DNA from: Proteromonas lacertae
Lineage: Eukaryota
Assembly (NCBI GenBank): GCA_002245135.1
Contig: NGBS01000318.1
Coordinates: 1-64,000 of the forward strand
DNA: 64,000 nucleotides
Direction: 5' to 3'
The notes beneath the pieces were generated by a model. It ran no database searches. It was not told the DNA's origin and saw nothing but the letters and a program-made list of their open reading frames with translations. A program made the position numbers and the translations under genes. How positions within the stretch are numbered: position 1 is the first letter of the stretch; each line of letters begins with the position of its first letter. This document shows positions 8,533-62,366 of the stretch, piece after piece.

Positions 8533-8633
8533 ATGTAAAAAGAAAAAAGAAATTTCAAACTAGGAATCAAGCTAGGAATCAAGTTTATTAGAAATTTAAA
8601 ATATTTTAATCTAGTTTACAGATGTAATCCATT

Positions 8634-8639
8634 AAATTA
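8634..8639 (+). repeat. Left target-site duplication AAATTA
   Basis: An identical hexamer lies at 34152-34157, immediately outside the right TIR. Confidence 0.85.
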
Positions 8640-8759
8640 ATAATAATATATAGTAAGGGCTACAGACCATTAGGCTCGAATGCTGTGCCACCAAGCTAGA
8701 CCACGAGTAACGCATCTTTTTTTATAACTTGTTTGATCAAGCCTCAATTCTATTTTGCA
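8640..8759 (+). repeat. Left terminal inverted repeat (120 bp)
   Basis: ATAATAATATATAGTAAGGGCTACAGACC...TCTATTTTGCA is the exact reverse complement of 34032-34151. Confidence 0.97.
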
Positions 8760-8929
8760 AAGGTTTGACTTGAACAGTTGGTTTGTGTATCGAACTTCAA
8801 TTATATTTTGAATTTATTTAATTGGCTTGTCCGAATTAAAATTGAAGAAACGTTTCAGAATATTTGTGTTTCGACATTGTACAAAAATCGAAACGGCATT
8901 TTGGACAAATTTGAATTTTTGAATTTCGC

Positions 8930-8931
<2 letters not shown>
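8745..8931 (+). repeat. Internal imperfect inverted repeat, left arm (partner at 10202-10317)
   Basis: TTGACTTGAACAGTTGGTTTGTG...TTATTTAATTGGCTTGT and AATTTTTGAATTTCGCGC match the reverse complement of 10202-10317. This arm has about 70 extra bp (about 8831-8900). Confidence 0.88.

Positions 8932-8932
<1 letters not shown>

Positions 8933-8973
<41 letters not shown>
8933..8973 (+). repeat. Poly-T tract (41 nt)
   Basis: Direct count. Confidence 0.95.
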
Positions 8974-9194: not shown

Positions 9195-10102
9195 ATGAGT
9201 GCTCCAAAAATGAAAATTATATATGAAAATACAGACACCACTATGCTCCAAAATGCTATTAACAATATTGAAAGGTATAAGAGTGTGGATTATCAATATT
9301 ACAAATTCGATCCCAAAAAGAATTACTTACACCTCGATGAAAATGCTCTAATTGAGAAAATAAAAGATTCAGCAAAGAGTGGAAGTCATTATGAACAATG
9401 TTTAGCAATTACAAATTACATTCAGTGTTGGTACACAACAAACAATGGTAAAACATGGAAAGACTTACATCATGAGTTTATTTGTGAAGATTTGTTGAAT
9501 CACATTTGTAATAGTATAAATTTCAATTTAATTTAATAGGTACTGACATAATTAAATATGGAACAGATGAAGAATTTGGTGAACATGAATTAGGTAATGC
9601 AATAGTTATAAATGTAAATGAAAAAGATGAACCAATTGAAATTGAACAATCTGATTCAGAAATAGAAAGTGTTGTGTTTAAAACTTCATTTAGTAATACT
9701 GAACAAATTGTATTAGGCAAAATGAAAGGAGATAATTTAAATTATATTTCTAAATTTCATAAATTTAGAAATGAGTACAGTTATACTTATATAGATTTAA
9801 TCGAGCCTAAAAGAAAATTAATTAGTGTCCAAAATAGTATATGGAGTGCTCCTGAAAAGTTTGAACAAATAGATCATCGCATTGAAGAAAAAGATATTGT
9901 AGATGTAACTGATAGTGAAACTGATGAAGAAAATAGAGTACGTTCTTATCCAATAATGACAACAACTGGAAAAAGAAGAAGAATTTGTAAAATGAGAAGT
10001 CTAGATGAAATTCAATTGGCTAAGTCGATTGATAAATTGATCAGTATAACGATTAACAATGAATTGCGATTGGCTGATATGGAATTTCAAAATATTCATT
10101 AA
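9195..10102 (+). pseudogene. Viral hypothetical gene (about 300 aa) broken by a 5-bp AATTT duplication near 9525-9534
   Basis: Removing one AATTT from TTCAATTTAATTTAATAGG gives ...NFNLIGTDIIKYG..., continuous with ORF 9674-10102. Confidence 0.75.
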
Positions 10103-10201
10103 TTAATTAATTAAAAAACTATTTTATACACTTACAATTATTAATTACTAATTGGTTTGAATGTTTGTTTGAGTTTTGGGTGAACCATTTTTAAAAATAA
10201 A

Positions 10202-10317
10202 GCGCGAAATTCAAAAATTTAAATTTATCTAACAAGCCAATTAAATAATTTCAAAATAAAATTGAAATTTGATGCACAAACCAACTGTTCAAGTCAAGCC
10301 TTGTCAAAATAGATTTG
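10202..10317 (-). repeat. Internal imperfect inverted repeat, right arm
   Basis: Reverse-complement match to 8745-8830 plus 8901-8931. Confidence 0.88.
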
Positions 10318-10440
10318 AAAATTCAAATTTTTCGAATTTTCTAAAAATTTCTTAATATTCTATTTTTGACATAACGATTGAGAATTAAACTTCAATCGAT
10401 ATTGTTCGAAGTGAAGCGTCACGTATATATTATTTGAGGC

Positions 10441-11593: not shown

Positions 11594-12562
11594 ATGTTAG
11601 TCTCTAATCATCGTGTATATTACTTAAATTCCGATATGGTAATGACTACAGGGACATTTGGAGTAGGGAATAGATACAAAAAGACCTTAGCTTTACCAAC
11701 ATTTGATCAAGATTATACTCATGTGTCATTATTACATGCAGTTGTCCCAAATTCTTTCCCTACTATACAAGCAGAGACAAACGATACGTTACAGTTCTTA
11801 TTTACTGTAGGTTACTATGATAATCTTTGGCCATTACCAACTTCTCCTACAGTAAGTGTTAAAGTTACCATTCCAGAAGGTTTTTATGATGAGAATCAGA
11901 TTTTAAAGTTATTCAATGATAAAATAAGAGAAATTAAATTTACAGATTTTGGAATAGAAACAAATGATGTAGTTCGTCCTTTTGATAAGATTGATGTACC
12001 TATAATAGAAGAAAAAGGAGATTTATTTGGAATAGATAACAATGGTAATAATCGAACAAATCATATAAAAGTAGCAAGTAATATGAATGTTATATATACT
12101 GATGGAAGTCCTTGGTTTTGGATAAAGAAGATTGAAATTATAACAAGTGACTTGAGTTACAAGTTATTAGGTATTCCTAAGAGTAATTATTGGTTATGTT
12201 TTGATAATTATGAACCGCCATATAATGGACATGGATCTGGAGCATATGTATTAATTCCAACACCATTTCCATTTGATCAATTACCATATCGTCCATCACT
12301 TATATGGGTTAATTCAATATCCATTCGTTTAGATATTGTAAACATCATTCAAGATTCAAATGTATTAGAAAATATACCAATAGCAAACCCTGAGTTACCA
12401 TTCATTACATATCAGAATAATGACATACTTAATACTAGCAAAATGTTTAATAATACTTATACCAATGGTCAAATTGCTATTCAGATTACTCAACAAAATG
12501 GTTATGAACTAAATCTTGATAATATCGAGTTTAATTTAGATATTGTTGTCTTTAAAGTCTAA
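11594..12562 (+). CDS. Minor capsid protein (penton, single jelly-roll) candidate
   Basis: YYLNS near the N-terminus, VSLLHAVVPNSF, VTIPEGFY and C-terminal IAIQITQQNGYELNLDNIEFNLDI are typical of Polinton/virophage pentons. It lies directly upstream of the major capsid gene. Confidence 0.8.
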   Translation: MLVSNHRVYYLNSDMVMTTGTFGVGNRYKKTLALPTFDQDYTHVSLLHAVVPNSFPTIQAETNDTLQFLFTVGYYDNLWPLPTSPTVSVKVTIPEGFYDENQILKLFNDKIREIKFTDFGIETNDVVRPFDKIDVPIIEEKGDLFGIDNNGNNRTNHIKVASNMNVIYTDGSPWFWIKKIEIITSDLSYKLLGIPKSNYWLCFDNYEPPYNGHGSGAYVLIPTPFPFDQLPYRPSLIWVNSISIRLDIVNIIQDSNVLENIPIANPELPFITYQNNDILNTSKMFNNTYTNGQIAIQITQQNGYELNLDNIEFNLDIVVFKV

Positions 12563-12592: not shown

Positions 12593-14041
12593 ATGTCTCT
12601 AACTATTCCAAAAGAGCAAAAACACGGTGTAGACGTTCCAGCGATGATGGCCTTTTACCAGTATGTCAAGTTGACACCGATGGAAACTAAATCATTCTAT
12701 CAACTTAAAGATAACACTTATTCAGATGAGATAAGGTTCGAATTAAGTGGTGAGAACATTATAAACCTTGCAAAGTCTTACATTCAATATGATATCGAAA
12801 TTGAAACTACTCCAATTAATAAAGCAGAGGCATTTTCAAAAAATGCTGCTAAAATAGCAGGTGATGCTGATTTGTATCCAAAGTATATAAAAGGAATGAA
12901 AGAAGGATTTGGAATTGCAGCATTTCGTTTATGTAATACTACAGGAACAGATCTAGTCAAGCTTGATGATAATTATGAACACTATAGAGTGTTTATGGAT
13001 GAATTAGTGAGAAAAAGATCAGACATTTTCTATCAATCAAACTATTATGATGGAATTCAATTGAAATGGAATGATGAATATCATGATCATTTAATTCAAG
13101 ATGAGAATGAATGGAATATGGATAAAGATGAAAATACACGAGTTACACCTGCTGGATCAGGTGATAGATATCAACAGTATAAAAAGTCAAAAACAATTCA
13201 TGTAAAGATGTTTTTAGGTAAGTTTTACAATACATTTTTATCAATGAAAAGTGATGTATTTTTTGGTGAAAGAATGTATTTGTGTTTCAATTTCCAACAA
13301 AGTCCTAAATTTGGACAAATTATGGGTTTTAATAATGATAAAGGTAATGAAACAGAAGTAAACTGGCCTGCAGATGGAATAAGACCAGAATCAATCAAGT
13401 TCAAGAATTTTTATTTCTATGCTTATTTGAATAAGGATACTCAATGTAATAACAATACAAGAAGTTATTGTTTATCTAAACCAATACAGTTTAATGATGT
13501 AAAGTGTCATACATTAACAGTAAATCAAGGTGGATCTGGACAATTCAACTATTCCTTTACATTAAATAGTTCAAATGGACCATTCTTACGTTATATTATC
13601 TATAGACCATGGATAGAAGGAAAACAAACAGGAGCAATAAGTAAGGAAGTAGCTGAAAACAGATATGCAATTATTCCTGAAAATGCACAATTCAGATGGA
13701 TGATTAATGATTTCGTGTATCAACCAGACTATTCATTAATGCAGTATTATGATAGTTACATGACTGTACAAGACTATTTCAAAGATTCATGGTTTGATAT
13801 ATTCAAAAAACATATTCCTTTTGAAAAGAAATTCTTTGAAATTTTGAATTTTGGATCAAAAGATTTAGATAATATCAAGAATCAGTCTGGCAGACCTTTA
13901 GCTAGTGACTTAAAAATCACTTTTGAGTTGTCTACACCAGGTACAAATGATTTCACTAACTACAACATAACTCATCGTTTCTACATTGTTACAGGAAGAA
14001 TGTGTACAATCAATGGAAGTGGAATTGTAAGTGTTATTTAA
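12593..14041 (+). CDS. Major capsid protein (double jelly-roll) candidate
   Basis: 482 aa and beta-rich. N-terminal EIRFELSGENIINLAKSYIQYDIEI resembles Polinton/PLV major capsid proteins. It sits between the penton and the ATPase. Confidence 0.78.
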   Translation: MSLTIPKEQKHGVDVPAMMAFYQYVKLTPMETKSFYQLKDNTYSDEIRFELSGENIINLAKSYIQYDIEIETTPINKAEAFSKNAAKIAGDADLYPKYIKGMKEGFGIAAFRLCNTTGTDLVKLDDNYEHYRVFMDELVRKRSDIFYQSNYYDGIQLKWNDEYHDHLIQDENEWNMDKDENTRVTPAGSGDRYQQYKKSKTIHVKMFLGKFYNTFLSMKSDVFFGERMYLCFNFQQSPKFGQIMGFNNDKGNETEVNWPADGIRPESIKFKNFYFYAYLNKDTQCNNNTRSYCLSKPIQFNDVKCHTLTVNQGGSGQFNYSFTLNSSNGPFLRYIIYRPWIEGKQTGAISKEVAENRYAIIPENAQFRWMINDFVYQPDYSLMQYYDSYMTVQDYFKDSWFDIFKKHIPFEKKFFEILNFGSKDLDNIKNQSGRPLASDLKITFELSTPGTNDFTNYNITHRFYIVTGRMCTINGSGIVSVI

Positions 14042-17165: not shown

Positions 17166-17720
17166 TTAAAAATCATTCACATATACTATATTTACTAATG
17201 AACTATAGAAATTGAAACATGTTTTTTCAAATTGGGTAAATAAGTATACTTTAAAATAAAGTTTCTGATTGGCTTCCAAGTGCCAATTATCTCTAAAGAA
17301 CTGATTGTACATAATTAATAGTCTTCTTATTGCACCTACTATTGTACTATAAGGAACTGATTGATTTTCTGTAAGATCTATTATTAAATCTATTTCATTA
17401 CATAATGAATCTACTTGATTTGCTGTTAAACTATTCAACGTTCTAAGACTTGGTTTGAATTTCGATAAAGATAACTTAAATAACTCTAAAGTATATTGTA
17501 TTTCTTCAATGGTAGCAATTACTCTAGGACCTTCAATACCTATTGGTAATCTATTCTCTGCATGACTTTCTAAAACATCTATAGGATCTTCATTTGAAGG
17601 AGGAGGTCTTTTATTCTCAGGATCATCTCTAATTATAAGTATTGGTGATTTAGGTTGAGGTGGAGGTGGTGGAGGTAAAGGTAATGGTATAGATTCTGTT
17701 TTTATGGGTATATTATTCAT
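17166..17720 (-). CDS. Viral hypothetical protein, Pro-rich N-terminus
   Basis: ORF convergent with 16736-17161. Confidence 0.7.
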   Translation of the reverse strand: MNNIPIKTESIPLPLPPPPPPQPKSPILIIRDDPENKRPPPSNEDPIDVLESHAENRLPIGIEGPRVIATIEEIQYTLELFKLSLSKFKPSLRTLNSLTANQVDSLCNEIDLIIDLTENQSVPYSTIVGAIRRLLIMYNQFFRDNWHLEANQKLYFKVYLFTQFEKTCFNFYSSLVNIVYVNDF

Positions 17721-18762: not shown

Positions 18763-19233
18763 ATGGCTAAGAAAAGTAAGAAGAAATATCGCAAGTGTGT
18801 TGTAGGAAAAGGTTTCTGGGGAGATTTAAATAAAGGACTGAAAGATACTAAAGTAATATCATCAGGTTTAAGTATGATTCCAGGATGGGCTGGTAAACTT
18901 ACTTCAGGAGTTGCTAAGTTATTAGGTTATGGTCGTAGAAGGCATAGAAAGAGTAGAAAAGGTGGTTCTTCAAAATGGTCAGAACTAATTAAGAAATATG
19001 GCAAATCAGGCAATAAGTTATTAAGCATAAAAGCTGTTGGTGGACCTGATTCATACTTTAAGAAAACAACTCAAGGTAGTGGACTTTCAATAGCTACAAA
19101 ACATTGGATTAAAGGACCTGGTGGAATTTATAAAGGAAAGACAGGTTCAGGAAGACGTCGTCATAGAAAAAGTAGTCGTAGTGGTAATAATGCTCTTAAT
19201 CGTTATCCTGATAATAAGATAAGAGTAGTTTAA
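18763..19233 (+). CDS. Basic virion core protein precursor with adenain-type GxG/GG sites
   Basis: VVGKG-FW, LLGYG-RRRHRK, RKGG, QGSG and TGSG-RRRHRK; K/R-rich overall. Confidence 0.72.
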   Translation: MAKKSKKKYRKCVVGKGFWGDLNKGLKDTKVISSGLSMIPGWAGKLTSGVAKLLGYGRRRHRKSRKGGSSKWSELIKKYGKSGNKLLSIKAVGGPDSYFKKTTQGSGLSIATKHWIKGPGGIYKGKTGSGRRRHRKSSRSGNNALNRYPDNKIRVV

Positions 19234-19291: not shown

Positions 19292-19606
19292 ATGGTTTTA
19301 GGTGGTAGAAGACATAGAAGACATCGAAGAAGACATCAAGGTGGTTCTTGGAAATCAGTGTGGGGTAAGATCAAAAATGGTGCAACTAAAGCCTTTCATT
19401 GGGCTAAAGATCATAAGATAGCATCAAAGATCGCAAAAGAGTTTGGTAAAGATGGTCTAGCAGATGGATTAGAAAAGATAGGATTTGGTAGACGTAGAAG
19501 AAGACATGGAAGAAGAGGTGGAGCTAGAATGCCATTCAATGGAGGTGGTAGCAATCAACAAGCTTTACTTAATGCATACTTGAAAACAAAAGTTGCACGT
19601 ATGTAA
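19292..19606 (+). CDS. Arg-rich core protein with an adenovirus pVI-like amphipathic helix
   Basis: VLGG-RRHRRHRRRHQGG-SWKSVWGKIKNG, IGFG-RRRRR and RRGG. Confidence 0.72.
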   Translation: MVLGGRRHRRHRRRHQGGSWKSVWGKIKNGATKAFHWAKDHKIASKIAKEFGKDGLADGLEKIGFGRRRRRHGRRGGARMPFNGGGSNQQALLNAYLKTKVARM

Positions 19607-20343: not shown

Positions 20344-21549
20344 ATGGTTACTAAAACTCAGTTAAAAAAACTCTTAGAGAAGCGGAAGAAAGGTGTATCT
20401 AGAAAGAAAAGAAGAAAACATAGCTTTAAAGGTCATAACAAATACTACCAATCACTTTACAGTAAATTCTATAATGACACTACCAATGATGTTCTAAGTA
20501 AAAGAATAGGTACTAGAAACACTGAACTAGATGAAATAAAGAATATATTAGGTAAACTGAATGAGCAGAAACAACATACATCAAATACTATACCATATGA
20601 TTTAAAAATAGAAGAATTATCATCACAGCAGAAACTATTAGAGAGACAGAATGCAGTAGATCAACAACTGGCTAGTTCTCTAAGATTAGGTAATAGTATG
20701 TCAAATCCAATTGCAAGAAATTATAGAGAACTTGATGATCAACACTTATTTGGATCTTCTATTTATGCTAATTCAAATAGACCTGATTATAATGCTATAG
20801 CAAGACAACAAGCTGAAGCAAAAATGAAAATGAATCAAATTCTGAGTGATCCTGTTAATCAGATGAAGATGCAGATGCAAATGGTATAATATTAACATTC
20901 TATTATATTATTTTAGTAGAGAAATAAAAAATATAAACCTAGTTTAGTTTTTAATAACAACACAAAATCAAAATCAAAAGTAGATCCTAAAACAGTTGTT
21001 AAGGATGATAAAAAAGAAGAAGAAGAGAAGAAGGAAGAAAAAGTAGAAGAAGAAGAGGACAAGAAACAAGAAGAAGAAGAAAAGCCAGAAGTGAAGGAAG
21101 AAAAAGATAAAGAAGAAGAAGAACAACCTAAAGAAGAAGAACAACCTAAAGATGAACCTAAAGAACAACCTAAAGAAGAAGAAAAGAAAGATGAAGGACC
21201 TCCAGTAATAACTGTAGATATACAAAATATAGAAAAATTATTCAACGAAACTCTTAGATTACCTGAATTCAAATATGTAACTATGCTTATAGGAGATTTT
21301 TATTCAGTAGCAAAAACTAAATCAGTAAAAAGAATTGATTGGACAGTTATTGGTCATGAAACAGAAGAAGAAAAGAAAGAAAGAAGGAGTAAAATAATGT
21401 ATTTAATTCCTCGAGAAGATTTAGCAAAAGCAGTAATAAAAGGTCAGTCCTTCAGTGACTTCATATATGAAAGTATGGATTTAATTGATGAAGCATTTGC
21501 ACCACGTATGATAAAGAAACAAAGGAGAAGGAAGAAGAAAAATTATTAG
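20344..21549 (+). CDS. Viral hypothetical protein, probably spliced (exons 20344-20883 and 20920-21549; 389 aa)
   Basis: A GT-AG intron at 20884-20919 joins two same-frame ORFs. The downstream E/K-rich frame is open from 20920 with no ATG near its start. Confidence 0.65.
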
Positions 21550-21618: not shown

Positions 21619-24600
21619 ATGACTGCTCCAACAAAGCGTAAGCATAAAGAAAAAGAATCAGTGGACTTTGACAATCCATCCATCTATCACAATGCGTTGA
21701 AAAGAAAATTGAAGAAAATGATTTATGATAGAGCATCTTCAAATAAGAAGGTCAAGTTAGATTTAAGTCATATGGCTAACCCAACAAGAGCAGTTGATAA
21801 AGGTAATGCTACAAATGAATTAGAGATTTACGATCCTTATACAAAGAATATGGTTAAAACATTTGGTGATGACTACGATGTAACATTTGATGATAATAGT
21901 AAAGATAAGCCAATGAATCCAAACCTCAATGCCACCAAGAACAATTACATGACTGATGAAATGAAGTATAAGTTGTACATGAGTGGTATTACTGATCAGT
22001 ATGGAAGGTATTATAGGAATATAGGTCAGTTTAATAAACCTTATTCAAATTACTATGGTGATCCTACAAACTTAACTAATATTTATCAAAATCCTTTTGG
22101 TCCTCCTAATCCTTATCAACAATTGCAACAAGGATTATATCAAGATCCAGTAACAGGTCAATGGTCTATGAGTCAGTGGAACAATCCTGCTCAGTACAAT
22201 ACTCAATCATATATAAATAGTCAGAGATGGAATAACAATAGTTTAGATAGTAACTATGAAGTAAAACAGCAATTACAGATAAAAAATGCTGCATTAGAAG
22301 ATGCAAAGAAAACAATTGAAAGAATGACTGAAGAACAACAGAAGACTTTATGGCATCATATTAATGAAACATTTAAAGGTACAACTTGGTGGGATTGGGG
22401 TACATGGGGTGTTAAATTTTTAATGTGTACTTTAGTTTTAGGTGGTATTGATATAGCATTCAAATATGTATTCCCTAATCAATTAGGTGTTCTATTATCT
22501 GGTATATTTAATATGGGTGTTAGATCAAGTGATTATTGTGCAAAGTTATTTGGTATATCTCAAGCTAATGTACAATATGCTTCATTCTTTGGATCATGGT
22601 TACCCACAACATACCAATTCATTAAAGCAGGATGGCAAGGAGGTGTAACTGGTTTAATGGATTTTGCAGTTAATCAGTTAAGAAATGTATGGAATTTCAC
22701 CAAGAACTTGTTCACTGGTTTCTTCAATTCGGTCAAGAGCGTTTGGAGCTCGATAACCGACGGCCTGCCTTGGAGCTCTGGAAGCACTGAAGATTCTGGT
22801 CCTACGGATGTTACAAAGTTATTTAGTAGTAAATATGAAACACCCCCTTCTTCAGTACCTTTAGCTTTACCAGCTCCAGAAGCTCCCCAACCTATAACAG
22901 CTCCAGATAAACAGCTGGTTGTCTACGGGGATTCAAATGCTACAAATACTACAGGTACATTAAACGGCGCAGGAAAGAAGCATGTAAGCTTTGGTCCTAA
23001 ATACGGGGGGAGCTCTGAAGCTAATCCTGTATACAACGCAAATATGGATGGAACAAATCCACCCACGGCGATTGCCGTGGGTGGATACGTCCATCCATAT
23101 TTTCTTCAAGAGTCTGCTCAACCTCCTGTAGAGGGATATGATATGGGTTATACATGGAGACACTTAGGAAGAGGTTTAGATTCAATAATGGGTAAAGGAA
23201 AGTTAGACAAGTATAGAAGACATAAACATAAACATAAGTTATTAAAGAAGCTTCCACGGAGGCATCTCTGTCATAACAAGAGATTATTAAAAAAAGGTGG
23301 TGCAAGTCTTATACCACCAGGTTATGTAACAGAACCTCCAGAACCTTCAGCTTCAAACAATGGTGTAGTAAATGTTGGTTACTATTATCCTCAAGGTAAA
23401 AATATTCAATTCTGGAATGGTTTGAGAAAACTATTTAATGCTGCAGATGCTGCACATGTAAATCAAGGACAAATGTATGAACCTTCAAGCTTGAATGATT
23501 ACAATTTAAATATGCCACAACATCCTTTCAATGAAGTTGGTTGGGGTGATATAGGATGGGGTACTATAAGAAGTTTAGATCCTAAAGCAAGAACAGAATT
23601 TGCAGCACAACTTGCAAACGATGGTGCTCAACAAGCAAGACAATTTAAACCAAAGTATTACTATGACTGGGATGAATTTCTTCACTTTCAAGATAAAGTG
23701 TATGCAGATCATTCAAGTGATCCTGATTATTATTTAAACAAAGCAACATGGAAATATAAACCTATTACGATTGATCCAACTAATGGTGCAAGTAACTTCA
23801 AGTATTTAGGTAATCCAAAATATGTTAATGAACAAGATTTTGTAACATATGATTGGGGTGATAATAAAGTAACTGATCCTTTAGCTAGATTTAATCCAGC
23901 CTTTGCTAAAATGAATGCAGAGGATATAAGAGCTGCTCTTAATCCAGGTATATCATCAAGACTAAAAGATCCTTTTCATTTAAACAAATCTGATATTGAA
24001 TACCAAGAGAAAGTTGGTTTACAGCAAGAAGTATTAAACAATGATTATACAATTGGACTTAATAATATGTATAATAACATGAAAGATAACAAATTGGATA
24101 AAGCGTACAAATGGAAAGCATATTCACAACAGCTTGGAAGAAGACTAAGATCAGATGATGAAATTAAAGAGAGAGCTGATCTTAATAGACTTCTTAGTAT
24201 TGATCCTGCTTTAGCTGAGAAAGCAAAACAATTACATGATATAGAAACATGTGAAATAGATGAAAATAGAAGAGTCATAATTCCAGATGAACAAGCATTT
24301 ATAAAGGATAACATCATTCAACATGAAAATACTCCTGAAAAAATTAATCATGAATTGAATGATAAAATGTTAGGTCATAAAGTTCCTGTTGATTGGAAGG
24401 ATGGTGATATGCAGGAAAAGATAAAAATAGGTTGGGAGTTACTTAAAAATGCCTGCAGTCAATGGAAAGAATTTGAAGGTAGTCAGTTCCAGAAGGCACT
24501 TCAATCACTGAATGAAGGTGACTTCATAGAGTTCGGTCATAACTTATACTTGTGTGTGAAGAATATTTTTAGAATTTTCCCTATCATATTTTATACATTC

Positions 24601-25866
24601 AAAAATTATTTACATGGTGGTGTCACTCCTGATATGGTTGAAGTTGATAATGCTATGCAGTATGCTAACTGTATTATAATTACATGCATAGCATTTTGGT
24701 TATGGAAGAAAGGGAAGTTAGGAAATTTTGGATTCGTGACAGTGTTATGGTTCTACATATTTGATTACTATACTATAATACAAAAGATAACTGGTAATCG
24801 TTTACCTGACATAACTACCTTAGCGAATAACAATTATGATACAGTGAGTAAAATGTTACCTACAGCACTTCAAAATTCATGGTTACCTATGCAATTCATA
24901 TACAATTGTGGTACTTCATTCTTATTCAACTCACATCCTTATGTTAAAATATTAGCAAATGCTGCACCCTTCTTTTTCAAATTTGCAAAGTTCGGTAAGT
25001 TAGATACTAAGAATGGAATTACAGGAATGATAATGTCACTACTAAGTGGAGGTAAAACAAAAGGAATGAAAGGTTTCTTAGGTAAAGTAGGTACATGGGG
25101 AACAGTACTTAGTGCCTTCGGTGCTTGTGTTGGATTGATAGTACCTAGTGCATTATCTACATTTTTAAGTACAGGAACTGTTCCTCAGAACAATCCTGTA
25201 TTCGATCCTAACAATACACTCAATACTCCAAATGGTTTATCTAACTTCGTGAGTAGTGGATTACAACTTCAGGAAATATGGCAAATAATGAAAGCATTAG
25301 GTTATGCAGGTAAAGGTAAGAATAAACTATGTTCACGAAGGATACTTTTGTCTAACATCAATAGTAAAGATGCATTATCGAACTTTGATATTGAAGAAAT
25401 TATTCAAAAAGAATTCAATGATTTTGACAAGAAGTTCAAAGGTTGTTTCTGTTGGGATGAATTGGTACTTCCTATACCTCATAAAATGGATCAGTGGGGA
25501 ATCATAATCAATACACTGACTACAAAAGCAAAACCAGATAGTGTAGGTCATTGGGTAGCTTTAGTAGTAGATAACAAAAAGAAGATGTTCATGTACTATG
25601 ATTCTTTTGGTGAGGATCCTCAACACTTGAGTAATTTCAAAGAATGTTTGAAGAAGTTTAAGAAATTTCATGAAAAACCATATCAGTTAAAAATCAATGC
25701 AGTTCAGAACCAGAACAGTAATACAAACAATTGTGGTTTTTTCGCAATCAATTTTTTGAACGATATATTAAATAGAAAAAGAACATTCAAGCAGGCAACA
25801 GATTTTAATACAGTAGTTGGTGAGAAAAGAGTAGCAATGATGAAAAAAGAGTTTGGAATAGTATAA
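21619..25866 (+). CDS. 1415-aa polyprotein-like membrane protein with a C-terminal adenain-like (clan CE) cysteine protease
   Basis: C-terminal GIIINT...GHWVAL...YYDSFG...QNQNSNTNNCGFFAINFL (His-Asp-Gln-Cys). Several hydrophobic segments and internal GxG/GG motifs. Confidence 0.88.
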   Translation: MTAPTKRKHKEKESVDFDNPSIYHNALKRKLKKMIYDRASSNKKVKLDLSHMANPTRAVDKGNATNELEIYDPYTKNMVKTFGDDYDVTFDDNSKDKPMNPNLNATKNNYMTDEMKYKLYMSGITDQYGRYYRNIGQFNKPYSNYYGDPTNLTNIYQNPFGPPNPYQQLQQGLYQDPVTGQWSMSQWNNPAQYNTQSYINSQRWNNNSLDSNYEVKQQLQIKNAALEDAKKTIERMTEEQQKTLWHHINETFKGTTWWDWGTWGVKFLMCTLVLGGIDIAFKYVFPNQLGVLLSGIFNMGVRSSDYCAKLFGISQANVQYASFFGSWLPTTYQFIKAGWQGGVTGLMDFAVNQLRNVWNFTKNLFTGFFNSVKSVWSSITDGLPWSSGSTEDSGPTDVTKLFSSKYETPPSSVPLALPAPEAPQPITAPDKQLVVYGDSNATNTTGTLNGAGKKHVSFGPKYGGSSEANPVYNANMDGTNPPTAIAVGGYVHPYFLQESAQPPVEGYDMGYTWRHLGRGLDSIMGKGKLDKYRRHKHKHKLLKKLPRRHLCHNKRLLKKGGASLIPPGYVTEPPEPSASNNGVVNVGYYYPQGKNIQFWNGLRKLFNAADAAHVNQGQMYEPSSLNDYNLNMPQHPFNEVGWGDIGWGTIRSLDPKARTEFAAQLANDGAQQARQFKPKYYYDWDEFLHFQDKVYADHSSDPDYYLNKATWKYKPITIDPTNGASNFKYLGNPKYVNEQDFVTYDWGDNKVTDPLARFNPAFAKMNAEDIRAALNPGISSRLKDPFHLNKSDIEYQEKVGLQQEVLNNDYTIGLNNMYNNMKDNKLDKAYKWKAYSQQLGRRLRSDDEIKERADLNRLLSIDPALAEKAKQLHDIETCEIDENRRVIIPDEQAFIKDNIIQHENTPEKINHELNDKMLGHKVPVDWKDGDMQEKIKIGWELLKNACSQWKEFEGSQFQKALQSLNEGDFIEFGHNLYLCVKNIFRIFPIIFYTFKNYLHGGVTPDMVEVDNAMQYANCIIITCIAFWLWKKGKLGNFGFVTVLWFYIFDYYTIIQKITGNRLPDITTLANNNYDTVSKMLPTALQNSWLPMQFIYNCGTSFLFNSHPYVKILANAAPFFFKFAKFGKLDTKNGITGMIMSLLSGGKTKGMKGFLGKVGTWGTVLSAFGACVGLIVPSALSTFLSTGTVPQNNPVFDPNNTLNTPNGLSNFVSSGLQLQEIWQIMKALGYAGKGKNKLCSRRILLSNINSKDALSNFDIEEIIQKEFNDFDKKFKGCFCWDELVLPIPHKMDQWGIIINTLTTKAKPDSVGHWVALVVDNKKKMFMYYDSFGEDPQHLSNFKECLKKFKKFHEKPYQLKINAVQNQNSNTNNCGFFAINFLNDILNRKRTFKQATDFNTVVGEKRVAMMKKEFGIV

Positions 25867-26234: not shown

Positions 26235-26335
26235 CGTTATTTGATACCTATATAAACGAAAAATAAAAGAAATACCGAATATAGCCGTTTCACGATCTTT
26301 AGCATTTTTTCGTTACACGAATTTTTTGAGAATTC

Positions 26336-26737: not shown

Positions 26738-28030
26738 TTATACAATTGTATCATCACCTTTTTTGATTCTGGGTCTTTCAAGAATACGTCTAAAATGAGT
26801 TTCAGGATCTCTTCTAGCAACTAATTGTAACTCATAATGTTTGAATCTATATCTAGATACATCAGGATCCCAATTACCGTTTATATCTCCTAATACATAA
26901 GAGTACCTGTTTTTATGTCTAATACGATATATCTTATCTGACCAATAAGTTCCTTTATCCATTTTTCTTCTTTGTTCATGAAACCTAACTAAATCTCCAA
27001 CTTGAAATTTTGTTTTTAATCTTTGTTCATTATTGAAATTGTATTTAACTGATTCCATTAACATTCTGTTTTGTAGTTTAGGACTATTGTATACTTCGTT
27101 AGGTGTATAATCTCTCAAACTTGATAAAGGTTTGTTATTATAATCATAAACAGTTTCTTGTACAATTTGATTGAAACGTGACAACCATCTCTGATCAATG
27201 ATTTCTCTTCTATCGTTTCTATCTATATTAGCTTGAAACTCTGGTGCATCTATACCTAAATCTATTAAATGTTTATATAATAATTTCTTTACAAGACTTA
27301 CAGATCTTTCCAATACCATTTCTATTCTATGTTCTGATGGCATCTTTTGAAAGAATGTAATTCCTTCTTGATCTAATAATGGTTTGATTGCATTGAAACT
27401 ATTTTGCATATCACACAAGACACTTACTACACGTCTTTTAGATACTACTTGAGAACCATCTTCATTTGTTTTAAAATACCATGCTCTAAAAGCACTTTCA
27501 ATACTTGGTCCTTTTTCATCACGTAATGGGATTGCCCATACTTTTCTGGAATTCATTTCTATCAAATATAAGTAAGGATGATAAGGTAAAAAGTAAACAA
27601 CATCCATTTGGAAGTATCCAGGCTTCTTGATACTTGCAAAAGGTAAATCTTGATTGTATTTAAAATCTACTATTTGACGACCAGGCTTTCTTCTTAGATA
27701 CTCTCTAACTACATCATAAGGTGGTGGAACATCATTAAGTTCTGCTGCTTCTTGTGTTAGTTTAATAAATTGTTTTTCACTTAAATAGTAATACTTATCA
27801 TAAAGTCTATCTAGATATTCTCTATATTCATCGATCTGTCTGGATATTTCATCATTTTCATATGGATTTGGTCTTGGATTATTCTGTATTGACGGTGGTG
27901 CATTGTTAAAATTCCTCGCATAATTTTGCTCATCTCTTGAGTCAACATGTCTATAGCCTGGTGGCAACTCTTGAGCTGTATCTGGATTTGGGTAAGAGTA
28001 AGACTTATTATAAAAATAATTAGCAAGCAT
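26738..28030 (-). CDS. Retroviral-type (rve, DDE) integrase of Polinton type
   Basis: FQMD, SRKVWAIPL, VLCD, LERS, YNNKP..L...TP, KFQVGDLVR, WSDKIYRI and YELQ. Confidence 0.9.
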   Translation of the reverse strand: MLANYFYNKSYSYPNPDTAQELPPGYRHVDSRDEQNYARNFNNAPPSIQNNPRPNPYENDEISRQIDEYREYLDRLYDKYYYLSEKQFIKLTQEAAELNDVPPPYDVVREYLRRKPGRQIVDFKYNQDLPFASIKKPGYFQMDVVYFLPYHPYLYLIEMNSRKVWAIPLRDEKGPSIESAFRAWYFKTNEDGSQVVSKRRVVSVLCDMQNSFNAIKPLLDQEGITFFQKMPSEHRIEMVLERSVSLVKKLLYKHLIDLGIDAPEFQANIDRNDRREIIDQRWLSRFNQIVQETVYDYNNKPLSSLRDYTPNEVYNSPKLQNRMLMESVKYNFNNEQRLKTKFQVGDLVRFHEQRRKMDKGTYWSDKIYRIRHKNRYSYVLGDINGNWDPDVSRYRFKHYELQLVARRDPETHFRRILERPRIKKGDDTIV

Positions 28031-28089: not shown

Positions 28090-31000
28090 CTAATTAAAGA
28101 CATTATTATAATTATCGTACATATTTCTAGCAGCTTCACTTTCATTTGGATCACGATTCAATAAGTATGGAACTGAGCTGATTCTAGTTAAATAACATCT
28201 TTTAATATCAAATATTGTAAATGCTAATTTAGGTACACGAACTGTATACAATACTTGTTTTGCACTTCTGAAACTGTACTGATCTACATATACTTTTTGT
28301 AAATCTCTACTATCTAAAATATTAGTGTAATAATCATAATCACATGTCTTTACTCTATAACCTTTAGATACACCTTTTGCTCTTGAATCAGATTTAAACA
28401 AGTGTATAGGTCCATCCACTCTCTGTTTTTCATAAGCATACATCTTTGCTTTCAATCCACAGAATCTTGTTATTGTGTATAACTGATCACTTTTGTTCTC
28501 TTCCATTTTAAGTAAGTTAAGTTCACCTGTTCTTTGATAGTTTTGATATCTGATACCTCTTTGCTTTAGATAATCACAATTAATATTACCAGTATCCATA
28601 CAACCTTGAATTGTTAAATCATCAGCAATATCTCTGTAAAAGTCTTTTGTAGCAACTCTGAAGATAAAAGAATCTGTATCTGTCATCAGTAAAGTAAGAC
28701 CATCTCTATATTTTCTGTATAATTGTCCATACCAAAACTTTGCCATTAAATACTTTGATTGACAGAGAATAGCCATTCCAATATAGCTTGGTTTATCAAT
28801 TGCACATTTATACTTCTTAAACTTACACACTCTTAAGTCACATCCATCAATTGATACAAAACCTGTAAAGTATGGATTACTTGTACACTTTAAGAACTGT
28901 TCTTCACTATTCACCAACTTACTTCTACATCTATTCTCTGTATTTTCACATGTCTTACCATATGCACTGTTAAGGATTAGTTTAAACGTATCTGCTTCAG
29001 CATCTCTATGTGCTGACTTTGCAGCCTTCCTTAATAGATGACACTGCATCACGAAATCATAAGCATAAGCTGTTTCACAAAAACTAATCACTCTCCATAC
29101 TTTGTTTACTTTATAACCTAACTTCACAGCATAGTTCAGATATTGATAATGAACAACATAGTGATACTTCCTACTCAAATCGCATATTATTCTTGGAGTG
29201 TTATTCTTCAATTCTCCATTCTTATCCACCATACCTAATTCTATAGCCCATTGCTTCTGTTCTTGTGACAAGTCTCTAAAGTATATCATCTTTCTCTCAG
29301 GGAATAAAGGATACTCTGAAAATCCACAACGATCTGGTGGATCTATATCAACTTCTAATATATAACCTCTACTCTCTGGATCTTTCCACAACTTCTGATC
29401 TTCTGGATTTGATGAATGCATTATATCTTCATAAGGTTTCATTTTCTTAATGACATCTATATAGATTTCTGGTTTCTCCCATCTGAAATCTTTATATGGT
29501 AACTTCATTGATGCCATTGTAGAAGGATACAGAGAATTATAATCCACATACATAATATAGGATTCTCTTTTTGGTGGGATTGCATGAAGATCTTCAAAGA
29601 ATGGTGGATCCATATAATGGTTCTTGGCTTCAGCCTTTCTCATTGATCCAATCATTGAAATACCTCCAATCAATCCTTTTCGAATGAAATCATACTTGTC
29701 TTGATCAGCTAACAATTCAATCTTTACATTACACCTTCTAAGAAATATAGACCATGCTAAACCTGGACAACTAACATGCCAACATGGATCTAATATAAAA
29801 TGCTTAAACACTACATTTCTGAAATGGTCAAACACACTTGTAAGAGTTAATACATCCATTGCTAAATAGAATAAGTTATACTCCATTAGATCATTCATCT
29901 CCAATAACTTCCATAATGCTTGACAGGAATCATAAATATCTTGTGGTATTTCTTCTTCCTGTTTCAATTTAGACTTGAATGCTTCTCTTGGTGGTAACTC
30001 TTTTGTATTGTATAACTTATCTATATGATCAACATATTCGTAAGGGAAGTGACCTTTCTGCAATCCCCATTTCATCATGAAATCATTGACTGTCCAATCA
30101 TGGTCTTTTAAACACTTTTGTATCTTTGTATCTTCTCTTACATACTGGTATACAGGATGGAATAACTTTTCATATTCACCACCTGATTCAGCTTCTATCT
30201 TTAAGGATTGAACTATACTATCTAGTGATGAAGACATAAACTGAAAGCTATCAATGAAGTGTAGTTTGTTAAACTTTATCATTAAGAACTTATTGTCAGT
30301 CTTTAATAGAACTGATAACTTTGATCTATACTTTCTTTTATTATTATTCATTGGCTGAGTTGTTATTGGTTGAGATGTAACTATGTTTCCCATTTCTTCT
30401 TCTAAACCAAGATCTTCAGCTGTTCTAGGTGATAAGTATTCTTCTCTACTATGTAACATATAATATAACTCATTAAATGCTTCTTCATTGTTGGGATCGT
30501 TTTCATCTACTATTTCAATTGTATTTGGTGGTTCTATTGGTAATGGTATTTCTTCTTCATCTTCATAATCTTCTTGAGTTGATATATCTACTAATCTATC
30601 TTCTTCTTCTTCCTCTTCTTGTTTCTTTTCTTCTTCAATACCTCTATTATATTCAGTTAATCTTTCATCAACAGTTGTTGTAGTATCTGGTATTGGTATT
30701 GATGGTTGTGGTGGTTGTTGTATTGGTTGTTGTTGTTGTAATGATACATTCCACTCTGCTTCCATTTCTTTATCTAATTTTGATAATCCACGGATAATGA
30801 AGTTATTATCATAGTTCTTACTATTGTGTGCAATACAAGGTATTTGCAGATGTTGTAAAGAACAATGCCAATTACAGTTACTACATAATGTAGCAAGATA
30901 TTTTCCAGTAAAATGGTCATGGTGTCTTGTGCGTCTTTTATTTTTATCATTTTCATCAAATGGAGTGTTACACCACATACACTTTGTTATTTTTCTATGA

Positions 31001-32946
31001 ATTGGTATATATGTACTTTCATCCAAAGGCTTTAACTCTCCACTCTTATATTCTTCATATTTCGATAATACATACTCTTCTATTTCTACAAACTTTCTGA
31101 CCAATTCCATTTCCAAGTCTTCAGGATCTTGTTGTGGACCAAGTTTACCAAAGAAAGTTTCTTCACTGATAATATCTGGATATCTTGAACTTATATGTAT
31201 GCACCAACTACTTAACACATGTCTACTAAATGCACCTTTTGCACCAGGTATTGCTTGTGAAGGATCTATTGGTACTTGTATTACTTCTGTATCCCAATAT
31301 AAGACCACTGGAATCATTTGCATGAATTTGAAGTTATGGAATTCCAAGAAAGTATCAGGTGGTGGGAATTGACGAATGACTCCTCTCTGTAATTGACAAC
31401 TGGTTGAATTATGTAGTTTGAATGCTTGATCTGTTGATAAGGTACAAAAGCAGTATGGACATCTAGTGTAGTAATTATGACAACGCTTATTGTATGGTGC
31501 AAGGAAGGCTTCTAACTTTGTTATTGTCATGAAGTGTTCTTTATAAAACAGTATGTTGACATGTGGGTAGTGTAGCATCTTATCTATTGAAGTTCCATAC
31601 AATGGTATTGGTTCTTTATCCACAATTGTAAATATATTGATAGTGACATGATTCATTTGTTCAAACACTTCTATTCTACCACTATCAGTGATAGGATCAA
31701 TAGGAAACTTCAAACATGTTATATCCATTCTATAAACATACTCCTTATACTTCATAGCTCTATTTCTATGATCCTTAAACTCCATATGATGTAATCCTGC
31801 TGCAACACTATATATAAAACACATACTTTCAGCTTCCTTACTATAATTGGTTAAGTTGATTAAACACTTTCTTCTTACTAAACTTTCAGGTAATAATATA
31901 CTGACATTGTCTGTAGCTGATCCAGTACTTAATGATGTTCTCATCATAATCATTTCCACTAGAGCTATATGTTTATACTTCAAATCACTTCTTTCTGTAT
32001 TGAATATATTATTGAAATCTCTTCCCATTATTCTATTCAATTTTTGGCCAACACTTCCTAATTCACTTACAGTAACTGACTCTGGATTAGTCTCATAGGT
32101 TTTGTAACATAATGGATCAGTTCCTTCAATATCTATAACATTGGATCCAACATATGCAACTCTGATTCTGAATTGAACTTTGGCATGTTCAAAATGAGTT
32201 GTATTGAAATAGTTTCTCAATGCTTTCATATACTCTGATCTAGGATCTGTAACTTGTAACCATATAGCTTCATACTCTCTACATAATGGATCATCACTCC
32301 AATCATGAGAATAAGTTTCTTCATACCTTTCACTTGAACCATGAACAACATCTAAAACATATCTACGAAGATCAAATGGCATTTCTTTTAATCTTTCAGG
32401 ATGATTCTCAACAACATCTAAAGCTAACATTGCTTCTCTTCTAACTCTTTGATCTTCTTCACTAACAGGAGCATCTGGATGTGTTTCTTGTGGTGGTGGT
32501 GGTTGATCATCGTCTACAAGTGGAGATAGTGTTGGAGTAATCTCTTCAGGAGGAGTATCTGGTAATTGACTATCTGGTATCTCAGTTATTCTTTGTATCT
32601 TTGGTGGTGGTTCTTCAATTACAACTGATGAACTCGTTCTCTGATTAACTGGTGTAACATAACCTGGTTGAGCTGTAGTTGTTGAAGATGTTTGAGGTGG
32701 TGGTGGTGGTGCTGAACCTGTTGAAGGTGGAGGCATGATCCCTCCTGCTCCTCCATATACTGGATAAGGTGGTGGATAATACATTGGTGGAGGTGTTGGA
32801 GGAACATAATAAGGTTGGAACCAAGGATTGAAATAATTAAGAGGCATCATGGGTGGGTTACCTGGAGCTGTACCTTGTTGTGGCTGTTGTGAACTTGGTT
32901 GATTATAACCATACGGATTATAACCATAAGGATATCCTGGATACAT
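28090..32946 (-). CDS. polB: Protein-primed family B DNA polymerase with a terminal-protein region, vOTU-like, C2H2 and EndoVII/HNH-like domains
   Basis: Exonuclease motifs YWDTE, HNSKNYD and YLAMD. Polymerase motifs YVDYNSLYP, KLILNSAYGK, TDTDS and KMY. Also CFIYSV...HF (OTU-like), CPYC...H...C and CMWC...HHDHFTGKY...CSNCN. Confidence 0.96.
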   Translation of the reverse strand: MYPGYPYGYNPYGYNQPSSQQPQQGTAPGNPPMMPLNYFNPWFQPYYVPPTPPPMYYPPPYPVYGGAGGIMPPPSTGSAPPPPPQTSSTTTAQPGYVTPVNQRTSSSVVIEEPPPKIQRITEIPDSQLPDTPPEEITPTLSPLVDDDQPPPPQETHPDAPVSEEDQRVRREAMLALDVVENHPERLKEMPFDLRRYVLDVVHGSSERYEETYSHDWSDDPLCREYEAIWLQVTDPRSEYMKALRNYFNTTHFEHAKVQFRIRVAYVGSNVIDIEGTDPLCYKTYETNPESVTVSELGSVGQKLNRIMGRDFNNIFNTERSDLKYKHIALVEMIMMRTSLSTGSATDNVSILLPESLVRRKCLINLTNYSKEAESMCFIYSVAAGLHHMEFKDHRNRAMKYKEYVYRMDITCLKFPIDPITDSGRIEVFEQMNHVTINIFTIVDKEPIPLYGTSIDKMLHYPHVNILFYKEHFMTITKLEAFLAPYNKRCHNYYTRCPYCFCTLSTDQAFKLHNSTSCQLQRGVIRQFPPPDTFLEFHNFKFMQMIPVVLYWDTEVIQVPIDPSQAIPGAKGAFSRHVLSSWCIHISSRYPDIISEETFFGKLGPQQDPEDLEMELVRKFVEIEEYVLSKYEEYKSGELKPLDESTYIPIHRKITKCMWCNTPFDENDKNKRRTRHHDHFTGKYLATLCSNCNWHCSLQHLQIPCIAHNSKNYDNNFIIRGLSKLDKEMEAEWNVSLQQQQPIQQPPQPSIPIPDTTTTVDERLTEYNRGIEEEKKQEEEEEEDRLVDISTQEDYEDEEEIPLPIEPPNTIEIVDENDPNNEEAFNELYYMLHSREEYLSPRTAEDLGLEEEMGNIVTSQPITTQPMNNNKRKYRSKLSVLLKTDNKFLMIKFNKLHFIDSFQFMSSSLDSIVQSLKIEAESGGEYEKLFHPVYQYVREDTKIQKCLKDHDWTVNDFMMKWGLQKGHFPYEYVDHIDKLYNTKELPPREAFKSKLKQEEEIPQDIYDSCQALWKLLEMNDLMEYNLFYLAMDVLTLTSVFDHFRNVVFKHFILDPCWHVSCPGLAWSIFLRRCNVKIELLADQDKYDFIRKGLIGGISMIGSMRKAEAKNHYMDPPFFEDLHAIPPKRESYIMYVDYNSLYPSTMASMKLPYKDFRWEKPEIYIDVIKKMKPYEDIMHSSNPEDQKLWKDPESRGYILEVDIDPPDRCGFSEYPLFPERKMIYFRDLSQEQKQWAIELGMVDKNGELKNNTPRIICDLSRKYHYVVHYQYLNYAVKLGYKVNKVWRVISFCETAYAYDFVMQCHLLRKAAKSAHRDAEADTFKLILNSAYGKTCENTENRCRSKLVNSEEQFLKCTSNPYFTGFVSIDGCDLRVCKFKKYKCAIDKPSYIGMAILCQSKYLMAKFWYGQLYRKYRDGLTLLMTDTDSFIFRVATKDFYRDIADDLTIQGCMDTGNINCDYLKQRGIRYQNYQRTGELNLLKMEENKSDQLYTITRFCGLKAKMYAYEKQRVDGPIHLFKSDSRAKGVSKGYRVKTCDYDYYTNILDSRDLQKVYVDQYSFRSAKQVLYTVRVPKLAFTIFDIKRCYLTRISSVPYLLNRDPNESEAARNMYDNYNNVFN

Positions 32947-33142
32947 AATATAACCTAAAAATTCTTAGAACTAGAAGTTAATAAGATATATACTTGATTA
33001 TTGGCTACGACGTTTAGCCATCCAATAATATTGTTAATTCAAATGCTAGTTTGATTTGAGCAACTCCCCAATAAGAAAAAAGAAGTTTCAAAAATATATT
33101 CGTTTTAATTCCATTTCGTTACAAAATCTTAAAATCGTCAAA

Positions 33143-34031: not shown

Positions 34032-34151
34032 TGCAAAATAGAATTGAGGCTTGATCAAACAAGTTATAAAAAAAGATGCGTTACTCGTGGTCTAGCTTGG
34101 TGGCACAGCATTCGAGCCTAATGGTCTGTAGCCCTTACTATATATTATTAT
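34032..34151 (-). repeat. Right terminal inverted repeat (120 bp)
   Basis: Exact reverse complement of 8640-8759. Confidence 0.97.
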
Positions 34152-34157
34152 AAATTA
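34152..34157 (+). repeat. Right target-site duplication AAATTA
   Basis: Matches 8634-8639. Confidence 0.85.
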
Positions 34158-34160
34158 CTT

Positions 34161-34550
34161 ATGGATACATCTAGATTGAAAAATAATATGGCAGATGGAA
34201 TTTTAGGAAAAGGGGGATTTGGTGAAGTGTGGAAGGTATTTCATAATGGCAAAACATTATCTAGAAAAGACATAAACCCAATAGGTCGAAATAGGGTCAA
34301 TATAATAAATGAAATGTTTATACTAGAAATGATGAAGAATCGTAATGTTTTGTCTTTATATGATTATTTTTACTGCCCAGTGACTGATAGTTTTCACATT
34401 TATATGGATTTATTAAATAATGGAAGTTTATATGATGAGGTTAAAGATCATGACCTCAATTATAACTATTACACTTTAGAAGTAAGATATTAATGATTTT
34501 ATACATTTTTTAGGAAATGTTGATATATATGTTAATATACATATTTTGAA
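34161..34550 (+). pseudogene. Truncated Ser/Thr kinase (N-lobe only)
   Basis: LGKGGFGEVWKV, a Lys and MDLLNNGSLY. An intron at about 34482-34513 is followed by EMLIYM (the same intron position as the 7284-8532 kinase), then a stop just before the dispersed repeat. Confidence 0.7.
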
Positions 34551-60366: not shown

Positions 60367-62366
60367 CTATGAATCTTTGTAAATACATTCTACACTTCCA
60401 TCACTATCAATTATCTTCTTACTTCCATCAGGAAATATCACTTCTTTCTTTCCATTAGGATAATGCTTCTCCACTTGACCAGATGGAAATTCTATCAACT
60501 CAGATTTATCATAATACGTAGTATGTTTAGTATCAGTAGAAGCATAATAATAAATGGAGGTTTGAGTAGCTTGAATGGTTTGTCTAACGTCGCCATTATG
60601 AAAATACACAATTACATCACCATTCTTATAGATTTCTTTTCTTGTCCCATTAGTAAAGATCAATACCCTCGTTCCGTCTTTATATTGTATATCTGTCTTA
60701 CCATCAGGTAATACTTGCTTTTTCACTATTTCACCTTGGTATGGCTTATAATGATTATTAATTCTGTTATGTTGTGTAGAAGATGGTTTAGATTTTGGAG
60801 GTGGTACTATTAAATAATAAATAAATAAACAAATATACTATTATTTGTTTGAGTTGTTTTTATTTTCTTCTTTATCTCATTTGTTAATTGATTTTTCAAC
60901 TGTAAAATATTCTCTAACTCATTCTTCAGTTTCTTTTCATAATCCAATAATTCTATTTTCTTTCTATCAAATTCTTCTTTATCTTCTTGAACTTCTATTA
61001 TCTTCTTCTCTAACAGATCTATTCTTTCTTTATATTTCAATAATTTATCTTTACATTTCTCTTTCAATGAATCATATTTCATTTCTTTTGATTTTATTTC
61101 TTCTTTCAATTTATCATATTCAATTTGTAAATTTCGTAATTCTCTTTTTGCCTTTGCTTCACCGTTTGAAAATGATTCTATTTGATGTTCAAATTTGGTT
61201 TTCATTTGTGCAATCTTTTCTGATTCACTGTTTTGCCATTCATTGAATTTCATAGTCTCTTCTTCGGTATGTATATAAAACTGCTGTTTTTCTAATAAGA
61301 AGTTATCTCTTTCAATATTTAACTGTTTTCTTTCATTTTCTATCTTTTTCCTTTCTTCTTCTAGTTGTTGGTATAATTGTTCAATATTATTGATTCTTAT
61401 ATCCACTGATGAATCATTATTATTATTTGATAATAATTGAGGTGGTGGTAGTGGTGGAGGAGTTGATATTTCCACATATTGTTGTTGCTGTATCGATTGT
61501 ACCGGTTGTACTGATTGTATCGGTTGTCTATGTTGTTGTTGTATTGATAGTGGTGTTTTTCTGTATGATATTAATGGAGAATTCTTCGCTATTTCATTAC
61601 TACTGTAATTCATTGGTGTTTCTGGTCTGGATCTGATAATACCGTATGTAGGTGTATTATTTATATTAGCATTGATATCTTCATTATCTATATCAGAGAT
61701 ATCTGCAAGGAATGCTGGATCTTGTTGTTGTTGTTGTTGTTGTTGTATTTGCTGTTGATAATATATTGGATTAGAATTAATTGGAGTAGATGTATTGGAA
61801 TAGATTATATTATTATTAATATCATTTACTGTATTGTATTGATTTGGTGAAATTTGTCTTGAGATAGCTATATTTTTATTATATATATGAATAATATATA
61901 TACGAGATGATAAATCAACTTCATCATTGTTTAAATTATCTGGTCTTGCATTTATTATGGCATCTCCTTCTTCTAATGTCTTTTGAGTATTGGCTAATAA
62001 CTCTGATATTCTTTTAGAGGAGATTTTATCTGGTGTTAATAATGCAGATTGTAAAGAATTGGTACTATTAGATGATGTTGTACTCATTGGAGTTGCTGCT
62101 TTTGGTTGAGAAAATCTAGGCTGTGGTTGCAATAAAGGAGAGGAACTAACACTATTTGGATTATTGTTCTTTATATTCTCTTGTAACACTTTCTTTAGTA
62201 GGTTATATTCACTATTTCTTGGAGGTTTATTTGCTGGAGATGGTATCTGAATGGTTGGGTGATTAGAACGTTTGTTATATTCACCACTAGAATTAAACAT
62301 TATTGACTGTTCACCTTCATCGAATATATCTTCAGAATCATCATCAATATAGTCTGGCAACGACAT
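60367..62366 (-). CDS. SAS-4/CENP-J-like protein (coiled coil plus C-terminal TCP10/G-box)
   Basis: Repeats LPDG, YKDG, FTNG, YKNG, FHNGD, FPSGQVEKHYPNGKKEVIFPDG, preceded by a coiled coil. Confidence 0.82.

Follow-up and report, generated by a model that had tools for sequence, protein, structure and literature searches.

MELD and Polinton-like viruses have been reported from Blastocystis (Starrett et al. 2021, PMC8502044). As described there, they resemble the element examined here in carrying a protein-primed family B DNA polymerase (pPolB), a putative integrase and highly divergent virion genes on a midsize, TIR-bounded genome in a protist. The likeness is one of description, and the main text of that report presents no viral intron. 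Some Blastocystis lineages are described as having 21–23% GC, encoded stop codons and introns of variable length (PMC12129017).

Spliceosomal introns in integrated protist viruses are already known, as are stop-creating NAGNAG acceptors and the 22K/33K isoforms of adenovirus. The punuivirus, an integrated giant virus, is reported to have spliceosomal introns in 61 of its 506 genes (10.64898/2026.10.09.758095), and it and the dinoflagellate eupolintoviruses are, like our element, integrated dsDNA viruses with host-like GT-AG introns. Punuivirus introns are given as 176 nt long and lie in latency genes, whereas those predicted in the element are 26–39 nt long, with one in a likely structural gene block. 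The eupolintovirus introns are described as transposon-born introners (PMC12166617), whereas the element's introns are without a close copy in the window (the whole 64,000-nt stretch of Proteromonas lacertae DNA that was analyzed). Two surveys of Polinton-like viruses mention, in the text available, only group I introns or none.

The adenovirus L4-22K and L4-33K proteins are described as sharing an N-terminus, with an unspliced short form, a spliced longer form and an intron within the coding sequence (PMC4346872), a layout to which that of the candidate gene is analogous. Each adenoviral form has a unique C-terminus, whereas the candidate's short form would be merely truncated, and the candidate, unlike the adenoviral pair, would have in its stop-creating tandem acceptor a second route to the short form. 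Stop-creating NAGNAGs of the same kind, in which the proximal AG of a phase-0 intron inserts a stop, are represented by 35 human introns that one survey set aside (PMC2279118). The human cases are described as mostly NMD targets, whereas the candidate, the sole intron in its viral gene, would yield a truncated product that resembles the whole protein of its relatives. In the main texts searched, mostly of non-subscription papers, neither a stop-creating NAGNAG nor host-type micro-introns are reported for a Polinton-like virus of this type.

The integrated element and its genes

The window contains an intact Polinton-like virus of MELD type, inside which lies the locus that a preliminary description had, rightly, called a viral gene (Table 1). 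GC content is 31% in the element and 25% in the flanks. A 6-nt target duplication, ATATAT, borders the element, and the site is AT-rich and palindromic. The element lies at the center of an imperfect AT-rich palindrome, with the flanks 8620–8651 and 34140–34170 inverted-similar beyond the target duplication. The flanking DNA holds intron-rich eukaryotic genes (Mo25, SNAP, kinases, kinesin, Piezo). It also includes a Tcp10_C (SAS-4/CPAP-like) centriole gene at 60367–62366 (minus strand), intergenic gaps that are short, and a nearly intron-free, Crinkler/RHS-like host gene at 49498–52355 (minus strand) with two P-loop/RHS-like regions and SAP domains. Judged by these traits and the Blastocystis reports above, the host would tentatively be a low-GC, Blastocystis-like lineage; the centriole gene, notable if such a host is aflagellate, and the short gaps leave room for other protists.

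Structural matches of the capsid model are to the major capsid proteins of Sputnik (E 3.4e-8) and mavirus (E 4.4e-7), with those of iridovirus and PBCV-1 also among the top matches, and five capsid relatives were found at 45–68% identity. The likely packaging ATPase is without an A32 Pfam match, the first ~1300 residues of the 1415-aa protein match no family, and the possible integrase has no Pfam or PDB sequence match. A long N-terminal region of pPolB has a weak endonuclease VII match (E 0.0068). RNA polymerase is absent among the viral genes identified. Two basic, G/R/K-rich ORFs at 18763–19233 (net +36) and 19292–19606 (net +23) neighbor the exon 1 gene. Both contain adenain-like Gly motifs, and by analogy they are probably core proteins akin to adenovirus pVII. 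Near the left end, inner inverted repeats (8744–8830 with 10232–10318, 90%; 8876–8940 with 10193–10257) overlap the end of the left TIR and enclose the 9195–10102 gene; a nested element, an invertible cassette and a chimeric left end are candidate readings of this arrangement.

Table 1 Positions of the viral element, its principal genes and the predicted introns within the window
Feature	Position	Strand	Remarks
Polinton-like (MELD-type) virus, intact	8652–34139		25.5 kb; TIRs and ATATAT on both sides
Left TIR	8652–8759	+	108/108 nt identical to right TIR
Right TIR	34032–34139	−	108/108 nt identical to left TIR
Second coding intron (predicted)	9514–9539	+	26 nt; score 6.2, the element's highest
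Candidate single-jelly-roll minor capsid protein	11594–12562
Major capsid protein, double jelly roll	12593–14041	+	Foldseek on model with pLDDT 55
Likely packaging ATPase, P-loop	14106–14954	+	Adjoins major capsid protein; PHROG terminase large subunit, E 6.2e-7
Exon 1 (short product)	20344–20883	+	180 codons; net +15; pI 10.0; mostly helical by prediction
Candidate phase-0 GT-AG intron	20884–20919	+	36 nt; donor GTATAA; four in-frame stops
Tandem acceptors TAG-TAG-AG	20914–20921	+	Acceptor sequence TAGTAGAG
Exon 2	20920–21549	+	209 codons; first ATG at 21283
1415-aa protein with C-terminal Ulp1/adenain-like protease	21619–25866	+	PF02902, E 8.4e-7; PF00770, E 0.0013
5' UTR intron (predicted)	26248–26275	−	28 nt; ends 13 nt before ATG 26234
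Possible integrase (weak)	26738–28030	−	PHROG transposase, E 0.0098
Protein-primed family B DNA polymerase (pPolB)	28090–32946	−	1618 aa; PF03175, E 2.7e-21
5' UTR intron (predicted)	32955–32993	−	39 nt; ends 8 nt before pPolB ATG

The candidate intron and its resemblance to host introns

An ATG at 20881–20883 stands directly 5' of the candidate intron, whose 3' end reads TTTTAGTAG. Recomputation bore out the coordinates and product sizes of the preliminary description. With the distal AG (20919; 36-nt intron, score 4.4), 20344–20883 is joined to 20920–21549 and encodes 389 aa. With the proximal AG (20916; 33-nt intron, score 4.1), a TAG comes straight after the Met and the product has 180 aa. 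Intron retention also stops translation, giving 181 aa that end M-V-stop. A third AG at 20921, absent from that description, would define a 38-nt intron and a product of 181 aa (score 3.8). All three lengths are host intron lengths, and the distal AG is the only one of the three that opens exon 2. GT/GC..AG joins other than this one are available (11 in frame); the gene model chose 20884–20919.

The downstream frame had been called start-less and E/K-rich, and it is both: its first 121 codons are ATG-less, and a basic linker is followed by an acidic, E/K-rich stretch (residues 26–95, net −18), a C-terminal domain and a basic terminal run that we read as NLS-like. This is the sole open frame of three across 20920–21549 (0, 20 and 26 stops).

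The host set consists of 76 introns that a gene model, trained solely on flanking host DNA, predicted. Two are anchored by the continuity of Pfam profiles across them (Mo25, profile positions 59–209 then 208–311; a kinase, 11–94 then 101–258), and the others are predictions. Their median length is 34 nt, with 61 of 76 between 26 and 40 nt, GTAT at the start of 64 and TAG at the end of 61. The claimed host-like size and composition held, the candidate being 36 nt long with an inner GC of 0.094, as compared with 0.125 in the host introns, among which it would rank 31st from the bottom.

The gene model called 20884–20919 unprompted. Within the element it called nine introns, six of which are in frame inside unbroken ORFs and probably false; because the model over-calls here, its call is weak evidence alone. 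It also called a 47-nt, frame-changing intron at 17249–17203 (minus strand), near the end of ORF 17166–17720, which is doubtful.

Scores as high as that of the candidate were reached by 2 of 2755 plus-strand GT..AG pairs in 10601–33800, the candidate included. No host-like intron lies over the stop at any of the 21 other viral frame ends, where the best score is 1.6 as against 4.4. Shuffling the junction yielded an in-frame host-like intron once in 2000 trials, a generous test since the threshold was set after the score was known and shuffling breaks frames too. Chance matches near the candidate's score do occur (antisense 20319, 4.2; a short one within an ORF at 16532, 4.1). The virus-trained coding score falls from the stop at 20887, is positive again from 20920 and dips at 20944–20958. 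In composition, the segment 20884–20919 is equally intron-like and spacer-like (LLR 0.0). TTAAC lies 22 and 25 nt before the two AG ends; YTRAY is without enrichment in host introns, and no branch-point signal could be detected in the host set (22 of 62 introns, compared with 26.8 when shuffled).

Several other accounts of the segment were rejected. An introner origin finds no close copy in the window (best match 25/36). An alternative genetic code is unneeded, as other viral ORFs end at TAA or TAG, and stop codons made by poly(A), as in human Blastocystis, are unneeded as the stops are encoded.

Scanning the element for introns with a score ≥3 and inner GC ≤0.2 gave ten donors, of which 9514–9539, 26275–26248 and 32993–32955 are the three best. 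The predicted 26-nt intron would join the ATG at 9195 to the frame 9540–10102 (293 aa spliced, 113 aa unspliced), in a gene with an upstream motif that the viral gene at 33143 also has. A uORF of seven codons (ATG 33021) lies upstream of the predicted 5' UTR intron of pPolB. Upstream regions with such a 5' UTR intron number 2 of 22, as compared with 0.21 expected (16 of 1000 shuffles). This is a cleaner test than a whole-gap shuffle (5 against 0.55, 0 of 200), whose result is too high, as the candidates themselves defined two of the gaps and one match (20319) is antisense. These three additional host-like introns strengthen the idea that the element uses the host spliceosome. From sequence evidence, we consider that the element probably carries about four host-type micro-introns, 20884–20919 included, and we predict with fair assurance that 20884–20919 itself is a real intron spliced by the host.

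Tandem acceptors, relatives of exon 1 and competing readings

We retrieved five relatives of exon 1 (P0016–P0020; 34–47% identity), all of 177–194 aa: three cluster representatives (177, 194 and 191 aa) and two cluster-mates. P0016, at 47% identity, ends QMQQMV, in register with the unspliced QMQMV of the window. P0019, from the same cluster, has a single difference in 177 shared residues and reads on past the Met as V-YMLYVLIYI. If P0019 ends at a stop, that stop occupies codon 11 beyond the Met, where the first TAG stands in the window. VY (25 of 62) and V-stop (15 of 62) are the commonest read-throughs of host donors. The intron model fits the P0019 tail better than the model of viral post-stop DNA does, by 3.4 log units; none of the 21 left-out viral ends exceeds 3.0, although the two models separate poorly. 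The P0016 and P0019 tails agree with a donor that is conserved and a sequence beyond it that is not constrained; loss of a stop would leave much the same picture, and P0016 may end where its contig does. Taken alone, the MV end common to P0016 and the window carries little weight, because Val-stop terminates 5 of the 20 intact viral genes (p 0.003; two as GTATAA, with TAA as the stop in 19 of 20). The other three relatives (P0017, P0018 and P0020) have 191–194 aa and are ~10 residues longer, with a common DNI..LL tail and without the terminal Val, which suggests a stand-alone protein of ~190 aa in those viruses.

No longer or fused (~390-aa) homologue of exon 1 was found among 1653 candidates, as would be expected with or without an intron because these look like unspliced gene calls on 1–6-kb contigs. 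The C-terminal part of exon 2 had no homologue among 16 candidates (114–366 aa) and no usable Atlas match, and exon 1 had only Atlas matches under 0.8. DNA of the relatives was not found in viral, metagenome or genome contig collections. Pfam and PHROGs gave no credible family for either exon, the exon 2 matches being low-complexity and below the cut-off, and the predicted fold of exon 1 (pLDDT 66, long helices) had no BFVD match with E <0.16.

Skipping of an AG in the last 10 nt is found in 2 of 62 filtered host introns, one of them a TAGTAG in a doubtful gene model, and at 11–20 nt in 9 of 62. Since few host introns skip an AG near the end, the distal AG may be rarely used, and use of the proximal AG, with the short product, may be common or even dominant. 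Human tandem AGs ≤6 nt apart are described as competing by distance (PMC2875228), and the choice between tandem AGs as stochastic, with stop-inserting cases known (PMC2279118). Both a short and a long product are plausible given the similar scores of the AGs and the lengths of the exon 1 relatives.

We therefore favor, with a probability of about 0.5, a reading in which the host spliceosome removes the 36 nt and the closely spaced AGs give products of 180–181 aa and of 389 aa in a ratio that is likely unregulated. An unregulated mix reads best because the AGs score alike and the more distant relatives have ~190 aa. Under this model, transcription by host RNA polymerase II would run on as far as the 3' motif after 21549, and the spliceosome would use the donor at 20884 and pick among the AGs at 20916, 20919 and 20921. 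Competition between AGs, together with retention, would yield a basic, helical 21-kDa protein and a 46-kDa extended form, to which the acidic flexible stretch and C-terminal domain would be added as in a minor extended subunit. The short form probably serves as a core protein of the virion or binds DNA, as its length matches that of the relatives and the basic G/R-rich genes and the protease gene adjoin it.

A real intron may instead be spliced in a practically constitutive way, with the distal AG in use, the 389-aa protein as the sole functional product and TAGTAG as an incidental feature. The distal AG does score slightly best of the two TAGs, exon 2 is intact over 209 codons with no other translation route for its first 121, and P0019 would suit a plain 33-nt intron. 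The proximal TAG, however, comes directly after the T-run, where the rarity of AG skipping in host introns tells against the distal site, and the DNI..LL-tailed relatives end as if the short form were self-sufficient. We regard constitutive production of the long form as unlikely.

Somewhat less likely still is the absence of any intron. The 181-aa frame at 20344–20889 would then be a complete gene and the 36 nt a spacer, and the downstream frame would form a gene of its own whose start is non-AUG or lost, or would encode 88 aa from the ATG at 21283. The frequency of Val-stop ends, the relatives of 177–194 aa with none fused, and a composition that does not tell intron from spacer all suit this account. 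So does a variant T-rich motif after the stop. Of the 21 other viral frame ends, 17 have TTGTT, TGTTT or TGTGT within 80 nt, as compared with a mean of 9.9 in shuffles (0 of 1000), and in 10 of 11 tandem spacers the motif lies inside the spacer; it was, however, defined on the gene ends that were tested, and is missing from 4 of 21. The TGTTT-type motif, which is like the Blastocystis downstream element, is possibly a viral 3'-end signal (ends 10643–33721). Its lack within 80 nt of the stop at 20889 favors an intron, although a near variant, AGTTTAGTTTTT, lies ~50 nt downstream, at the dip in coding score. Against the two-gene account, all 20 other main-body genes start with ATG after at most 53 open codons, as against 121 in exon 2. 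Decay of the exon 2 start codon is unlikely given the identity of the TIRs over all 108 nt and the intact element. The P0016 and P0019 tails, and the lack of a host-like intron at any other frame end, likewise argue for an intron.

A bolder reading is speculative, and we give it little credence. It holds that the virus would have adopted the host micro-intron grammar genome-wide (four introns of 26–39 nt, two coding and two in 5' UTRs) and would have selected a conserved TAG-TAG stop-versus-extend device that sets the ratio or timing of the short core and long forms. A regulated switch, in which virus or host shifts the choice of AG by stage so that the two forms appear at different times, seems very unlikely: the anatomy permits it and adenovirus is described as timing acceptor choice (PMC4346872), but published accounts make the choice between tandem AGs largely stochastic and dependent on distance, with tissue specificity in few cases. 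About as unlikely is a true intron of 33 nt, with the second TAG arising in this copy by nonsense mutation of exon 2 codon 1 and the distal AG circumventing it in part at best; the P0019 frame ends at the 33-nt register and a 33-nt intron scores like a host intron, but signs of decay are otherwise absent, the TIRs are identical and the large ORFs are intact.

Expression of Polinton-like viruses

The replication strategies of Polinton-like viruses are called unknown in a preprint on Halocafeteria. At issue is whether most of these viruses rely on the host's own machinery for transcription in the nucleus or need a giant virus as helper. If an intact element carries introns of host size, one of them probably common to a virus at 47% identity, its sequence would speak directly for expression in the nucleus with splicing by the host. 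If the introns are real, prokaryote-style gene calling shortens such viral genes. A stop-creating tandem acceptor kept for the ratio of isoforms would be an unusual viral expression device and, if the bolder reading above is true, the TAG-TAG would be a spliceosomal counterpart of the stop-codon read-through in viral structural genes.
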